Shown piece after piece: positions 2,545 through 21,251 of a stretch of 64,000 nt of DNA (its first letter is position 1; each line of letters starts with the position of its first letter). Below the pieces are notes generated by a model. It saw only the letters and a list, made by a program, of their open reading frames with translations, was not told the DNA's origin and made no database searches. The stretch is from Octopus vulgaris. Its lineage: Eukaryota. A program made the translations under genes and the position numbers. The stretch is from contig OX597826.1 in the NCBI GenBank assembly GCA_951406725.2, positions 24,552,001 to 24,616,000 of the forward strand. Direction: 5' to 3'.

Positions 2545-5500
2545 CTAGAAGTATAAAGAATTATAAGTAAAATTAAATATTTTTATTACCAATTACGAGT
2601 CTACATGAAATGGTTTACAAATAACTACATACTGAAGCATTAATTCTACATAGCATATGTTGAGCTACCTTGTTTTGTTATTTTTATTATTGAAGTATAA
2701 TGAGGCAAGAGGATTTATAATTTCTCTGTAACCATTATGGTGTGTGCGCGATTTGAATATAAAGGCACCTACCTTCTCTTCCTCACGATGGAGACCCTCC
2801 AGTGGTAACTAGTCCTTCGACACAGCCCCGACACGAACACTAACGATAGCAGCTGCTAGCCCAAACCCTTAGCGACGTCCTCACACGTCTTGTCACCTGG
2901 ATGACCCACGTTGGAAAAAGCCCAATTGACCGCTGCCTGCGCACGCCTGACAGCTGCCCCTTCCAGTTGCACCCAGCTGCTGACGTCATCCCACACGCCA
3001 CCCTGATCTTAAAGATCACAATCTCTCCGCTCCATGTTGTAGTCCACCATCCAACCGGGAGAGCGCCTTGCTCGTCGAGATCTTCTCAAGCTGGGCACCT
3101 CGTTCTCCCCCTCTCCAGAATCGTCGTCCGTCAAAGCGATAAACCTGCGAAGGTCCAAGACGTGTCGTGGCGTTCCATCTATGGATACGTCGTTTCTGGA
3201 ATTGACCGCCGTCACCGTTCCTCTGCTCCATTGAGCGTGCCTTTGGTGGCTTGACCCAGACTTCCTCCCCTATTTTCACGCGAACGGGTCCCTTCTCTTC
3301 TTCGTGATCCTCCGGAGCTTTGCTCAGGTGTCTCCATTCATATTTGAACACAGCTCTCTGCGGCACAGATTCCTCAGCTTGTCCGGATCGGGGAGACAAG
3401 TTGTACCAAAAAACTGCTTCAAGCGGCGAAATGTGCCCTCTTTCCGCTATGGCCTTGACTGTCCAATGGTGCCTCTCCACGATCCCGTTACCGCTCGGCC
3501 TATACGCTGCTCTGAACAAGCGTCGCATATTCCACCAATCAAGCATAACCCTCAATGCTTCCGAACGAAACGCCGCTCCGTTGTCCATCAGTAGTTCTTC
3601 CACGGGACCTCTCTCTAAGAATATCCCATTCAGGATCTGCGCGATCTCGTCAGCAATGCCCGATCTCAACTCCCTCCAAATGGCCAGCCGACCCGGCCCG
3701 CAGTCGACCATGGACAGGTACATTCGCTGACGGTAGTGTGTCACATCCACAGCTAGCCTTTTCCAGTTCTGCTCCACGGAAAGGCTTCCCTGTTCATGCC
3801 CACACGGAGCAGGGTCGATGGACTGACACCTGTCGCAGCTCCCGACCACCTTCCGGATGCTTCTCCTAGTGACGTCAGCATCAATTTTCTTCGCCAGATA
3901 CAGGGTCCTGTCCACACCCAGGTGATGCATAGCATGCAGTTTCTTCAGTTCAGAGTCATCCAACCGACATGCCGCAGCTATCCCTTTCGGGGCCTCCTCC
4001 GGTTCTTCCAACCACGCTCTTTTCACCCAGGTCAGTACGTCCGCCCTGTTTTTCTCCGAAGGCACGAAAACCATGCTCAGCTTCAGTCCGAACTCGGCGA
4101 TCAATTCACCTAGAACTCCTAGACGGTGCTTCACTAACATCTCCGCAGCACCTTTCGTCCGTACTCTCCTTTCACTGGTGATCACCGATCCTACCCAGCC
4201 AAGCACAGTGGCCGAATCCGTCCGGATTTCAATCGTGCGCAGCCCTCATTTCAAGGCCAAGTTCACCCCTTTCAGCACCACGTCTAATTCGGTGACGTTG
4301 ATGTGGTTGAAATCATCTGCTTTCCGAAGCCAGGCTGCGTCCTCCACCGCAGCGCCTTTGATTGCCAACACCACCCCTATCGCTATACTGCTGGCATCAC
4401 ACCAGACGGTCCCGCATTCCGTCTTGGGCACGTACCAGTTCCCCCTGACCGGGTCTTCCGCTCTCATCCTCTCTAGGATTTCCTGCATCATCGCCACTGT
4501 CCCTTCTCCCACCTTGTCGCCCCACCTCTCCCCTTCTGCTTGTCTCTTGGTGTAACTACACGCCATGCGCAGCCATCCAGCGATCAGGTAGTGACTGACC
4601 AACTTCCCACACACCGAGAACAGCTCTCTCCTGCTGACGCTGGAACTCAGCTCTGGGATCTCATTTCCTCTCCGGAACACCAATTCACCCGATCCAGCTC
4701 TTCGCAGCTTCAGCCCCAGCGTGGCTCCCCTTTCAATTGACTCCGGTGGCTTAGCAATCAGTCCGAACTTCTCCAGATGACTAACTACCTCGTTGGCTGG
4801 CACTACAGTTTCGTCCACCAAAATGTCGTCAATGGTGGCTTTCTAATCTTGCCGTCTTTCCCTAGGACGGACCTAAACACTGCCGCCATGATCTTCGGTG
4901 CGGAATTCAGCCCGAAACCCAGCCTGGTTAGACAGTACGTCCGGCTCTTGTACCGCACCAGCTGATATCGCCACAGTTTGTCGATCACATGGAACTGCAT
5001 GTATGCCAATCTCAAGTCGACAATCGTCGCTGCCTCAGTCGACTGTCTCCACTTACGTAACGCCTCGCCACAAACGTCTGTCGCCTCACCTCTCGTGTGA
5101 CACGATATGTGCTGGTTTAGCTCCCTGAAGTCCAGCACCGGTCTGACTTTTCCCTTCGTAGGCTGCACCACCGCCATCAGGGGTAGCACTCCGCCCACTA
5201 CCTCTCCTTCCAAGGGACAAGGACCCCTTCCTCGATCCACCTCTCCACCTCGTCTTCAAACTCGACCCTGGCGTGGCCTTTCAGGGTATGCTGGTAACAG
5301 CTCACCCTGTTTTCCAGCGTCGGGGGCTCGTCCTTCCATCGCCACTCTATCATCCACCGCCGACCATCGAACGCCGCCTGAAAGTCTTTGTCCTCGATGG
5401 TGTAAGCGGCGCAGTCCCTCGCGGGGCTCTGCTCTCTCTGGCGATCCTGACTTGCAGTGCATGACGCCCCCACGCTTCCAAACATGACCTCATTTCCCAC

Positions 5501-8500
5501 AACACTGACGCCACCGAAGCAGTTGATGGCGTCCATCCCCATCACCTCCATCTATCACGCATTCGGCCACAATTGCCTGCAGCCTTAGTGTCGCGCCGCG
5601 CACCACTATCTTTACCTTGCTGCTGCCTCTGCAATGGATTTCGCTGCCGTCGACTGCCCGGACACTACTCACCCCGTTCCATTCCTTCGTCACCCTCGAA
5701 GTCACAAGGGTTGTCGTACAGCCCGTATCCACGAGGGCCTTGAACGTCTTCCCCTCGGCCTCCACGTCAATCAATGGCAGCGTCTCCAATAGTGCCTCTA
5801 CTCGTTTGCGGGGAAAGTTCGAGAGGCAGCAACTTCCCCACGGTCGTTTCCCTGGTCGCAATCACGGGCAATGTGCCCTGTCTGCCTGCATCGATAGCAA
5901 ACGGGACCCGGCTGCGTACAGTCCCGCGCCATGTGCGGTCCCTGGCATCTAAAACACCGTCCTGAGAACGGCCGCTCTCGTTGCATGGTAAGCTTCTGTA
6001 CGTCTTTCTCGGGACGTCGTCCGTCTTTACGCACCTCCGTCACCGCCATCGCTATCGCCTTCCGCCCAGAGTGTCTCGTCAACACACGAGCCTGAGCCAC
6101 AAGTTCGCTCAGCGGCATCTTTTTAATCTCGGGCAGTCGTTGTAGGTGAATCCCTACATCGTCGGGGAACCCATTCACAAACGCCAGCCGGGCTGCTCTC
6201 TCCAGCCCTTCTCCCGCAAACCCAGCCAGAGTCGCTAACCTTCTAACTTCTGATGCATAGTCATCCACTTGGCCTCCCGTCCACCTGATTGCACCTAGCT
6301 TAGCAAAAGCTGTGTATTTGCATTCCGTGTAGGCATCCCGCAAGCATCGCTCTATGTTCTCCTCGCTGAGCCGTTCCTCTTCATCCATCTCTAGGTATAG
6401 CGTTAAGGCGCTCCCTTCTAAATACAGCGCCATAAGACTCGCCACATCGCTTATACCTTGCAGTCTTGCCACCAGCCTGATTTTGCGAATCCAGGCCACT
6501 ACATTGCCTTCGCCATTAAAAGGTCTGACGACGTCGCTGGTGATCCTAATTTTTGCAGACATCGTGGCGACGAATCATGTTCAAATGTAAATGTTTAAGA
6601 ACGGCCAAAATAGCTTGTGGTGTGTGCGCGATTTGAATATAAAGGCACCTACCTTCTCTTCCTCGCGATGGAGACCCTCCAGTGGTAACTAGTCCTTCGA
6701 CACAGCCCTGACACGAACACTAACGATAGCAGCTGCTAGCCCAAACCCTTAGCGATGTCCTCACACGTCTTGTCACCTGGATGACCCACGTTGGAAAAAG
6801 CCCAATTGACCGCTGCCTGCGCACGCCTGACAGCTGCCCCTTCCGGTCAACGCACCCAGCTGCTGACGTCATCCCACAACCATAGAATACGTGTGTGTAT
6901 ATAATATCTCTGTAACTTCAGAGTTCAAAAAATCATTGTGTTGTGTCCTGTGTAAAAATTGTAACTAATTAATCAATAAAGTCATGTTTTATTCTTTCTT
7001 TACAGTTCAGTTATTAGCTGAAAGATAACCATCTAAACATCCAACTGAAAAAAACAATTGCTCCAACTAAAAAAAAAAAAAAAGCCATCCCACCAATGTG
7101 ATCTTATAAAAAATGTGAACAGGGAAAAAAACCCCAAGAAAATATGAATTATTACGAAATCCATTTCTTTGTGAAATGTTATTTTAATATGTGAAATATA
7201 CAGAAATTTGATAACCATATCTGCCTACCTTCATGACATGCTTGTTGACAGTAGTGTTGTTGACAGAGTAAAAGACGTCTACAAGGCTGCCCACATGACC
7301 ATACTTTGTCAGAGCAGCGTCGCATTTTTGCTGGAGACTGTTGGCAATGGCAGAGAGCTTTCAATATTTTAGGACATGGAGGGCAAGGACCTGAATATAA
7401 CCCAGCGACAAATTATAGTACAAATATATAATACATTTAAACAACACTAACATTTAACATTACTACCAAATGAAAAGTTTTTTAAATGGGAAGGGGGGAA
7501 TGCTATGAATTTACAACAAAAAAGAAAGATTTTACACTTTATTTTAAAAAAGAAACTAGTTTCTTCAACATATTATTACATAATTTTAATTGTTACACAA
7601 GTAAGTATAGAAGCAAACTGATTGAAGCATTATTATTATTGTTGTTGTTGAAAGGTTTAGGAAATTTTTGCCTATTATCAGTGAGTGTATATTTAGTAAA
7701 GATTGAAAATGGCTTTAGCAGATATGTAATTAATATATTAAATTACCTGGATGGCAGAGTAATAAACAACAATGTCCACAGAGGGGTATTAGTTGTTTTC
7801 CACATGTCTGTCCACAAGAATGTGGTACTAACCATGGATCAAAACGTGGGTCTTCGACTTGACCGCAAAAACATTTATAACGAACCGGACAGTCTTTTTG
7901 TTTATATTCGAATCTGCATTTTGGGCTAGAAGAGAAAAAGGAAACCTCATTTTTTTAAACATGTATTTCTATCTTAAATAGAAAATATGGAAACTTTTCT
8001 ATGATAAACAAGAGAAATTTTCATTTGAGGATTTAAAAATTAATAACTTCTATCCATTTTCTCTGTTCACTGTGCCTGAGAGAGTCATAGAGGCACAGTC
8101 TCAGGCACCACCCCCATGGGGTCCTATCAGTAGCAACTGTCATTACACTTTCCAGCTAGATTCTCAAGCACGACCAATGGAGATTATGGATATTATCCAA
8201 CCATCTCATTCTTGGTCTACTACTAGGTCTCCTGCAAGTTGCCTTGCAATTATTTCCTGTAACATTCTAATCCCATGTCCTTGGTACCCGAGCTACGATC
8301 TCTCAATGCTGAGAAGTAGTGGCACTGAGCAACACACCCTGATGAGTTACACCAAATCTTCTTTGGAAGAATCCAGTTTCAGCTGTTTGTATTCATAATT
8401 GTACTCTTTCAGTCATTACCCAACATTCATGACCATAGGTAAGGATAGGTAAGAAACCTAATTGAATTTTTTTTTTTATCAACATTTCCTCAACTGGGGA

Positions 8501-10276: not shown

Positions 10277-11949
10277 CATCATCATCGTTTAACGTCCGCT
10301 TTCCATGCTAGCATGGGTTGGACGGTTCAACTGGGGTCTGGGGAGCCCGAAGGCTGCACGAGGCCAGTCAGATCTGGCAGTGCTTCTACAGCTGGATGCC
10401 CTTCCTAACGCCAACCACTCCGAGAGTGTAGTGGGTGATTTTATGTGCCACCGACACAGGTGCCAGACGAGGCTGGCGAACGGCCACGCTCGGATGGTGT
10501 TTTTTATGTGCCACCGACACAAGTGCCAGACGAGGCTGGCAGACGGCCATGCTCGGATGGTGTTTTTTATGTGCCACTGACACAAGTGCCAGACGAGGCT
10601 GGCGAACGGCCACGATCGGATGGTGTTTATTACGTTCCCACAGCACGGAGGCCAGTCGATGCGGTACTGGCTACGGCCACGTTCGGATGGTTTTTTTATG
10701 TGCCACCGGCACTGGTACCACAAAGATACAAATTCCATTGATGTTCATTTTGATTTGGTTTGATTTTGGTTTGATTTTCACTTGCCTCAACAGGTCTTCA
10801 CAAGTGTCACAAGAAGGAAGGTATGCACAGGTGGACTGACTACGTCCCAGGTAGGGGCCACGGGTTATGGCCTCACTAGTCTTGCCGGGTCTTCTCACGC
10901 ACAGCATACTTCCATAGGTCTCGGTCTCTAGTCATTTCCTTGGTGAGACCTAAAGTTCAAAGGTCGTGCTTCACCACCTCGTCCCAGGTTTTCCTGGGTC
11001 TACCTCTTCCACAGGTTCCCTCAACTGCTAGGGTGTAGCACTTTTGCACACAACTATCTTCAGCCATTCTCGTCACATGACCATACCAGCGCAGCCGTCT
11101 CTCTTGCACACCACAACTGATGCTTCTTAGGTTCAACTTTTCTCTCAAGGTACTTACACTCTGTCGATTATGAACACTGACATTACAGATCCATCGGAGC
11201 ATACTGGCTTCATTTCTTGCGAGCTTACGCATATCCTCAGCCGTCACGGCCCATGTTTCACTACCATGTAGCATGGCTGTACGTACACATGCATCATACA
11301 GTCTGCCTTTTACTCTGAGCGAGAGGCCTTTTGTCACCAGCAGGGGTAAGAGCTCTCTAAACTTTGCCCAGGCTATTCTACTCTAGCCGTTACACTTTCA
11401 GCACACCCACCCCCGCTACTGACTTGGTCACCTAGGTAGCGGAAGCTATCAACTACTTCTAGTTTGTCTCCCTGGAACATGGTAGAAGTTGGTCTCTGCA
11501 CATTTCCAGTGTTTATTGCTCCTGAGCATCTGCCACAGACAAAAACTATTTTCCTAGTTAGCCTTCCTTTGACATTGCTGCACCTCTTATGTGTCCATAG
11601 CTTACACTTGGTGCACCTTATAGAGTTTCTACCTACACCTTTTTTACAGATCGAGCAGGGCCATCTACCTGAAGTCGTTTGTGATTGGTCCACCTTCCTA
11701 CTTATAAGGACTTTGGTTTTGGCTAGGTTGATTCTAAGGCCCTTCGATTCTAATCCTTGTTTCCACACCTGAAACTTCTCCTGAAGGGCTTATTTTAATT
11801 TCCCTTGATCAAATCTACCCATAAGGTTTAGTTGGTACAAGGCTGTAGCATACGACACTTGTTCTGCAGTAGGACTAAATCCAGAACCATGTGTTTGGGA
11901 AGCAAACTTCTTAACCACACAGCCGTGCCTGCATACGCACATGCACTCA

Positions 11950-18850: not shown

Positions 18851-21251
18851 AAAGACCAAAGACTGGAGGTGTTTCGTGTTGCAAGACAGTGTGTGAGAGA
18901 GAATTGTGATGTGGTAGGAGAGAAATGTGTTCGCATGGAAGATGGTTCACTTGCGCTAAATGAGGATGCAAAGAGAGAGGTTTGGAGACGCCACTATGAA
19001 AGGTTGCTGAATAAAGAAAATGAATGGGATAAAGAGAGTCTGCTGAATGTCGACCCAACAGAGGGACCAGCTATCCGAGTTGACAGTTCCTTGGTAGTTA
19101 AGGCGATTAGAAGCATGAAGACAGAGAAAGCCCCAGGCCCATCAGGAATCACTGCAGAGATGCTCAAAATATCTGGTAGTGTCGCCTATAGCCTAGTCAC
19201 CCGTATAGTTAATCAGGTGATACACGAAGGAGTCATACCCAATGACTGGTGTAGCAGCATAATAGTCAACTGCTACAAAGGTAAAGGTGATGCCCTAGAT
19301 ACAAATAATTACAGAGGTATCAAGCTGCTGGATCAGGTAATGAAGGTTACGGAGAGGGTCATAGCCCAACTAATTAGAGAGAGAGTTAGTTTAGATGAGA
19401 TGCAGTTTGGGTTTGTGCCAGGGAAAAGTACCACTGATGCTATATTCCTGGTAAGGCAGCTGCAGAAGAAATACCTAGCCAAAGATAAGCCCCTGTACCT
19501 GGCTTTTGTTGACATGGAGAAAGCCTTTGACAGGGTCCCCTGATCCCTTATCTGGTGGTCAATGGGGAAACTAGGGATAGATGAATGGTTAGTGAGAGCT
19601 GTGCGAGCCATGTACAGGGCCGCTGCTAGTAAGGTGAGGGTTGGCAACGAGTAGAGTGAAGAATTCCGGGTAGAGGTAGGGGTCCACCAAGGCTCAGTCC
19701 TCAGTCCCCTCCTATTTATCATAGTCCTCCAGGCAATAACAGAGGAATTCAAGACAGGATGCCCCTGGGAGCTCCTCTATGCTGATGACCTTGCTCTAAT
19801 TGCTGAGTCACTATCAGAACTGGAGGAGAAGTTTCAGGTGTGGAAGCAAGGATTAGAATCGAAGGGCCTTAGAGTCAATCTAGCTAAAACCAAAGTCCTA
19901 ATAAGTAGGATGGTAGACAAATCACAAACGCCTTCAGGTAGATGGCCCTGCTCGATCTGTAGTAGAGGTGTAGGTAGAAACTCTATAAGATGCACCAAGT
20001 GTAAGCTATGGACACATAAGAGGTGCAGCAATGTCAAAGGTAGGCTAACTAGAAAGATAGTTTTCGTATGTGGCAGATGCTCAGGAGCAATAAACACTGA
20101 AAATGCTCTGAGACCAACTTCTGCCACATTCCAGGGAGAAAAACTAGAAATGGTTGATAGCTTCCGTTACCTAGGTGACCAAGTCAGTAGCAGGGGTGGG
20201 TGTGCTGAAAGTGTAACTGCTAGAGTAAGAATAGCTTGGGCAAAGTTCAGAGAGCTCTTACCTCTGCTGGTGACAAAAGGCCTCTAGCTCAGAGTAAAAG
20301 GCAGACTGTATGACGCGTGTGTACGAACAGCCATGCTACATGGCAGTGAAACATGGGCCGTGACTGCTGAGGATATGTGTAAGCTCGCGAGAAATGAAGC
20401 CAGTATGCTCCGATGGATGTGCAATGTCAGTGTTCATACTCGACAGAGCGTAAGTACCTTGAGAGGAAAGTTGGACCTAAGAAGCATCAGTTGTGGAGTG
20501 CAAGAGAGATGTTTGCGCTGGTATGGTCATGTGGCGAGAATGGATGAAGATAGTTGTGTGAAAAAGTACCACACCCTAGCAGTTGAGGGAACCTGTGGAA
20601 GAGGTAGACCCAGGAAAACCTGGGACGAGGTGGTGAAGCACGACCTTCGAACTTTAGGTCTCACTGAGGAAATAACTAGAGACCAAGACCTTTGGAAGTA
20701 TGCTGTGCGTGAGAAGACACCGGCAGGACAAGTGAGACCATAACCCGTGGCCTCTACACGGGATGTAGCCAGTCCACTTATGCATACCGTTCCTCCTTGG
20801 GATACAAAACTCTACTTGTGAAGACCTGTTGAGGCAAGTGAGAATTGAAATCGATCAACATCAATGGAAATTGCAGCTGTGATACTAGTGCCAGTGGCAC
20901 GTAAGAGAACCATCCGAACGTGGCCGTTGCCAGCGCCGCCCCAACTGGCCTCGTGCTGGTGGCACGTAAAAAGCACCATCTGTCTGTGGCCGTTGCCAGC
21001 CTCACCTGGCCCCCATGCCGGTGGCACGTAAAAAGCACCATCCGATCGTGGCCGTTTGCCAGACTCGTCTGGCATGTAAAAAGCACCCACTACACTCACT
21101 GAGTGGTTGGCGTTAGGAAGGGCATCCAGCCGTAGAAACATTGCCAGATCAGACTGGGCCTGGTGCAGCCTTCTGGCTTCCCAGACCCCAGTTGAACCGT
21201 CCAACCCATGCTAGCATGGAAAGCGGACACTAAACGATGATGATGATGATG
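18851..21251 (+). mobile_element. 5'-truncated RTE-clade LINE with complete RT domain
   Basis: Single frame 18869-20743 with 3 nonsense codons. KAPGPSGI, NYRGIKLL, QFGF, FVDMEKAFDRV, GVHQGSVLSP, LYADDL. (GAT)n tail. Confidence 0.95.

Follow-up and report, generated by a model that had tools for sequence, protein, structure and literature searches.

The 12 bases behind the 5′ LTR of a divergent octopus retrotransposon lineage complement the 5′ tip of host tRNA-Phe(GAA)

The primers of LTR retrotransposons fall into three types in a systematic survey, namely the whole tRNA, a tRNA half produced by cleavage in the anticodon stem, and a self-primer (PMC6317226, in its available text), and further cases of priming by the anticodon loop have been reported, all of them linked to Copia elements (PMC10886601, available text). 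Half-tRNA primers are used by Drosophila copia, yeast Ty5, the plant elements Osser, Bryco, Gymco-II and Bianca, fungal Copia elements and Helenus; in these systems the tRNA is cut in its anticodon stem-loop, the primer-binding site (PBS) corresponds to the anticodon arm, and the users named belong to the Copia superfamily (available text of PMC6317226 and PMC10886601). In Tf1/sushi elements, the extreme 5′ end of the RNA anneals to a short PBS adjacent to the LTR, and cleavage is needed to yield a 3′-OH (PMC4600332 and bioRxiv 10.1101/2022.12.06.519325, available portions). A 5′ fragment of tRNA-Asp has been linked to the Gypsy PBS region in Arabidopsis as well, but that case concerns chromatin binding and regulation at a site where the 3′ end of a tRNA serves as primer, and not priming by the fragment (PMC11962134, available text). 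Priming at tRNA nt 1–12 is not described in the available portions of PMC7472051, PMC7773854 and PMC11962134, and no description of priming by a tRNA 5′ tip was found in the accessible full-text literature.

The window analysed here, a stretch of 64,000 nucleotides of the Octopus vulgaris genome, contains a 4.1-kb LTR retrotransposon on the minus strand (Table 1). It has two LTRs with TG...CA ends, a target-site duplication, and the gene set of gag, protease, reverse transcriptase (RT), RNase H and DDE integrase, with a purine tract before the 3′ LTR, and its integrase lies downstream of RT-RNase H, which is the Ty3/gypsy (Metaviridae) order. The LTRs are identical at 254 of 260 aligned bases, and the 3′ LTR of other family copies ends in CA, unlike the TA of the window copy, whose pol is split over several frames. 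No tRNA gene or Rfam RNA was found within the element. All own-genome families have a short palindrome with a variable centre immediately ahead of the purine tract (window 3005–3020, minus strand, and L077–L096). Elsewhere in the window, a 63-nt tandem repeat occupies 10434–10720, and two segments of at least 188 nt, 90% identical and in inverted orientation, lie at 11606–11793 and 19813–20000, 8 kb apart.

Table 1. Coordinates of the LTR element and its parts in the window.
Feature	Position	Strand	Remarks
5′ LTR	6616..6878	-	263 nt, TG...CA ends; contigs from other runs show flank break points at 6616 and 6878
3′ LTR	2736..2995	-	260 nt; final two bases TA, not CA
Target-site duplication, upstream copy	6879..6883	.	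5 bp
Target-site duplication, downstream copy	2731..2735	.	5 bp
Primer-binding site (predicted)	6604..6615	-	complement of tRNA-Phe(GAA) nt 12 to 1; C-to-T change (G-U pair) at plus-strand 6607
Short purine-rich tract and 2-nt spacer (CG) before 3′ LTR	2996..3004	-	other families share the layout
gag ORF	5798..6562	-	254 aa, two CCHC knuckles; open
Aspartyl protease part of pol	5490..5861	-	one of several pieces in different frames; weak Pfam matches, below cut-off
Reverse transcriptase, DUF7047 and first part of RNase H	4246..5551	-	three frames, terminal stop; domain identity from relatives
Rest of RNase H and DDE integrase (H2C2 and rve)	3016..4245	-	

Directly after the 5′ LTR come 12 bases complementary to nt 1–12 of the host tRNA-Phe(GAA). 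The site starts with the first base after the final CA of the 5′ LTR, and its plus strand reads as the initial annotation had given it. The tRNA-Phe start, which that annotation had given as the one of metazoan tRNA-Phe(GAA), was borne out in the host, with 94 matches in the 2.8-Gb genome versus 0 for the control, and ARAGORN called tRNA-Phe(GAA) at all 12 loci taken from these matches. The annotated 11/12 match with one G-U-compatible difference likewise held up: the 5′ end of host tRNA-Phe exactly complements the family's site, and the window copy pairs at 12 of 12 positions with one G-U, its single mismatch being a private C-to-T change. Comparison with 12 host anticodon types (51 sequences, a partial tRNA set) gave nt 1 of tRNA-Phe as the sole window matching at 12/12. 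The Phe-type duplex of site and tRNA was calculated at -18.7 kcal/mol. The pairing does not extend into the LTR, tRNA nt 13 onward being unable to pair, and local folding leaves the site no more exposed than the bases around it. Taken alone, one match with one mismatch somewhere in 64 kb does not exceed what shuffles produce by chance (mean 0.53), and the match stands above chance because of its fixed position at the LTR end and its conservation in the family. In the host genome, the LTR end joined to the perfect 12-mer gave 287 matches versus 14 for the control. A tandem array of tRNA-Phe starts with a 200-bp period and about 45 copies was seen at G000:C18:30147732-30157146.

The conservation of the site, on which the initial annotation had staked its reading, was found in the family and well beyond it. 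Among 108 own-genome loci, 105 had an LTR end, and these gave 72 distinct LTR-end contexts, of which 59 carry the perfect 12/12 site, four the G-U variant and six other changes of one or two bases; in the remaining three the script had selected the end of a 3′ or adjacent LTR, and their 5′ junctions are perfect. Part of this set had been fetched by a DNA query containing the motif; for the families fetched by Gag protein alone, and thus free of motif bias, 25 of 28 sites are perfect, in families with different LTRs and a Gag 47–53% identical to that of the window. LTR pairs, which are independent of the motif, placed the LTR end at the 12-mer or within a few chance-matching bases of it in 18 of 20 whole own-genome elements, the exceptions being L078 with a deleted LTR end and L086 without an LTR pair. 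The other end of the site is sharp as well. The base at position 13 varies freely (A 40, C 17, G 12 and T 3 in the 72 contexts) although position -1 is A in all 16 tRNA-Phe starts listed, which indicates that the match ends at the mature tRNA's 5′ end and does not run into the precursor leader. In contigs from runs with three other organism labels, the only change listed in the 12-mer restores a Watson-Crick pair, and the base just outside it varies. The annotated match from tRNA nt 1 up to the LTR thus stands, its position being set by the LTR pairs and its conservation ending at nt 1. In runs X1 and X2, a contig of a further subfamily matches the LTR and the 12-mer exactly as far as window position 6604 and then diverges, so that its likeness stops at tRNA nt 1.

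The known priming routes were compared with this site. A TGG does occur in the window copy, eight bases inside the site, and ordinary priming there by the 3′-CCA end of another tRNA was considered as a rival explanation. This TGG arises from the private C-to-T change; it is present in only four of the 72 contexts, the mutated ones, and the bases after it vary, so that the family majority refutes this route and agrees with the annotated absence of a standard LTR-adjacent TGG site. In the window copy, the best CCA-anchored pairing within the partial tRNA set spanned 4 nt, and in three family copies it spanned 1 nt; the probability left to this explanation is close to nil. As a positive control, 12 canonical Gypsy elements from the host genome were inspected: nine have a TGG 0–2 nt after the LTR, and the other three gave no clear call; these canonical elements share with the clade the TG...CA LTRs, the 5-bp target duplication and the gag-PR-RT-RH-IN order, but carry, unlike the clade, the TGG sites and RT_RNaseH_2 domains. 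A PBS of the half-tRNA type facing the anticodon stem-loop was rejected, since the best window is at tRNA nt 1 and nt 13–73 gave no second site above shuffles. A second tRNA-Phe site elsewhere in the element, for example in the palindrome before the purine tract, was likewise rejected, the longest complements of 7–9 nt being reached by 27–100 of 100 shuffles. An antisense Pol III promoter was dismissed by eye, its sole B-box-like word being too close and absent from other families. No LTR-LTR circle joint was present among the joints listed in eight runs of contigs.

Self-priming was also rejected. As the initial annotation had remarked, the LTR offers no good self-complement: in 15 of 15 elements the best complement in the LTR region reached at most 10/12 with G-U, with duplexes of -7.7 to -12.9 kcal/mol versus -18.7 kcal/mol for the tRNA, and at six further, variant sites, one of them shared with the 15, the self-complement again did not exceed 10/12 with G-U and was weaker than the tRNA in all six. 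These values bear as well on a reading in which the site serves packaging or regulation by binding the tRNA or a 5′ tRNA fragment, with priming by another route such as a self-primer or a protein primer. The reported binding of the Arabidopsis 5′ tRNA-Asp fragment to the Gypsy PBS region for regulation (PMC11962134, available text) lends it some plausibility, but minus-strand DNA can start nowhere but at the position that the site occupies, selfish elements would presumably not keep a silencing target perfect across phyla, and the self-complement that a self-primer would use is the weaker one. We consider this reading improbable.

At larger distances, scans of metagenome and genome-bin contigs yielded 4 and 9 loci, respectively; L127 and L129 lack the 5′ junction and L132, L133 and L135 represent one contig and family, which leaves nine junctions. 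The RT of these distant elements is 47–61% identical to that of the window family (six measured). In nine of nine, the site opens with the complement of tRNA nt 12–8, and the changes between the elements are confined to the bases facing the acceptor stem. Phe-type sites occur in four of the nine (L073, L074, L075 and the L132 group). The L128 site is the exact complement of nt 1–12 of one host tRNA-Lys gene, and also of nt 1–12 of human tRNA-Lys3 (sequence from the available text of PMC8715211). For L076, L130 and L134, the sites complement 5′ ends of genuine tRNAs that occur in unrelated viral contigs, which speaks to the form of these sites and not to the host, and the L131 site matches tRNA-Lys(CUU) at 10 of 12 positions, missing tRNA nt 1–2. 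The LTR ends of L073, L074, L131 and L134 were judged from context and not from an LTR pair: in L073 and L074 the second LTR is not complete or is missing, and L134 has neither an LTR pair nor a Gag HMM match. In L128 the LTR ends in AA in place of CA. No tRNA start in the host genome matched the L076, L130 or L134 site, a search of five genome bins for tRNAs fitting the variant sites gave one match, which is not a tRNA, and the variant site types, without that of L134, gave 4 matches in the host genome versus 34 for the control. Judged from these sites, the predicted tRNA partner is different between lineages.

The distant sites also weigh on the explanation that the primer is a conserved small RNA of the host other than a tRNA, one that ends in the 12-mer. 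The host comparison covered 12 tRNA types only, which leaves it some room; but the distant variants keep the complement of tRNA nt 8–12 and match real tRNA 5′ ends, one of them exactly that of tRNA-Lys3, and the boundary of the site coincides with tRNA nt 1, making this explanation extremely unlikely. Regarding the sources scanned, three scans of viral contigs yielded no relatives, and searches across the family in 85 and 49 bacterial genomes yielded no new clade members, L282–L284 being ordinary Gypsy elements. The bacterial genome bins G001–G005 (L127–L135 and L282–L284) contain contigs with animal-type LTR retrotransposons, likely as host contamination. The 25-kb contig of L132, L133 and L135 is a tandem array with a period of about 8.2 kb and two copies of the LTR end and Phe-type site per unit, and it holds two tRNA-Ser-like calls (L132 1421–1502 and 3475–3556).

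The arrangement of the site points to a priming mechanism. A mature host tRNA would anneal to the site by its nt 1–12, that is by its 5′ strand, which would open its acceptor and D stems, likely with the help of the CCHC Gag; the unpaired remainder of the tRNA would then be cut off after nt 12, or nt 10, to free a 3′-OH, from which RT would extend the very short RNA primer and so start minus-strand DNA. The cut would follow from the geometry: synthesis of minus-strand DNA has to begin across from the LTR end, at the place of tRNA nt 12, and nt 13 and beyond are unpaired, so the 3′-OH must be made there. The 12/12 pairing favours a 12-nt primer, and the 2-nt spacer before the 3′ LTR allows a 10-nt primer with a 2-nt DNA overhang, because the first two bases of the site may be spacer. 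Taken jointly, annealing, cutting and priming by the tRNA 5′ tip are considered probable, with good confidence, from the layout and conservation of the site. About half of this confidence goes to a cut at the duplex edge by the element's own RNase H, by analogy with the Tf1 self-primer but in trans; RNase H is reportedly named as the cutter for Tf1 in the title of a study by Levin from 1996. About equally open is a host-made 5′ tRNA fragment that is trimmed to fit.

Like half-tRNA priming, such a mechanism would use a 5′ piece of a host tRNA with a new 3′ end inside the tRNA (PMC6317226 and PMC10886601, available text, for the half-tRNA systems); it differs in that the match covers nt 1–12, i.e., the acceptor strand and D stem, and in that the integrase follows RT-RNase H. 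In Tf1 the annealing RNA is the element's own transcript, whereas here it would be a host tRNA acting in trans, and the element has no self-complement; Pfam scans of the elements gave no match to a chromodomain, in comparison with Tf1/sushi. The site is real, strongly conserved and outside the three listed priming types, and as a variant of cleaved-tRNA priming it may deserve a class of its own.

By RT and RNase H sequence, the element does not appear to be a canonical Gypsy, despite its Gypsy-like domain order. Under the clade RT profile, canonical Gypsy RTs of the same genome scored at most 20 bits versus 155–326 bits for clade members, and under the RNase H profile canonical Gypsy elements scored at most 3 bits. 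With that RT score the canonical Gypsy RTs do no better than HIV-2 RT, which reached 25 bits under the whole-protein profile of the clade. Five of five clade polyproteins gave no RT_RNaseH or RT_RNaseH_2 match and DUF7047 is constant. On these comparisons the DUF7047-bearing RT-RNase H (window 3016–5861; L073, L074, L128, L130 and L132; P0038 and others) appears about equally far from canonical Gypsy and retroviral RTs, and its RNase H motif presumably resembles that of DIRS elements. The group comprises 892 proteins, and its named members come from molluscs, crustaceans and Trichuris; the closest named protein in the RT tree, whose rows are the clade and its sister group only, is from Argonauta, and a protein atlas returned RT clusters only, none of them named. 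The sister group (P0238, P0244, P0245, P0247 and P0250, with Sycon among its named hosts) shares PR-RT-RH at 39–42% RT identity and was not found in the host genome; RT_RNaseH-type matches appeared in two of its 10 proteins, only at E 0.02–0.05. Its integrase is more typical and the clade profile gives no match in the same stretch, a pattern compatible with a possible integrase exchange. The DUF7047-bearing group may represent an unnamed deep LTR lineage. It may also be one of the MolGy clades, for which the PBS is not mentioned in the available text of PMC6238403; no named Gypsy clade is assigned to it.

The divergence of this RT raises another way of using the 5′ pairing. An uncut tRNA might prime through an internal 2′-OH at nt 10–13, giving branched RNA-DNA as in retron RTs, which make such molecules from a 2′-OH; this would account for the 5′ pairing without a nuclease, and the RT is indeed highly divergent. 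A structural model of RT-RNase H (pLDDT 78) is nevertheless closest to caulimovirus, foamy-virus and lentivirus enzymes (13–18% identity), which extend 3′-OH primers, and the element has no conserved second tRNA site. Internal 2′-OH priming is considered very unlikely, and a cut tRNA 5′ tip is the preferred primer.

Combining lineage and mechanism, we tentatively propose, at rather less than even confidence, that a deeply diverged, animal-wide LTR lineage may use a fourth class of priming, in which the 5′ tip of a mature tRNA would be cut by the element's own RNase H after 10–12 nt and the tRNA would be switched through the acceptor-facing bases only. If true, this fourth class would be a trans form of Tf1 self-priming and would link tRNA priming with self-priming. 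It would add to the primer types of LTR retrotransposons a tRNA 5′ tip of 10–12 nt, cut in the D stem, and it predicts that an RT-linked nuclease cuts tRNA and that 5′ tRNA fragments act as primers or competitors of these elements. It further predicts that a large group of animal elements escapes PBS finders designed around tRNA 3′ ends; this group would include the named relatives in molluscs, crustaceans and a nematode, with the sister group in a sponge.
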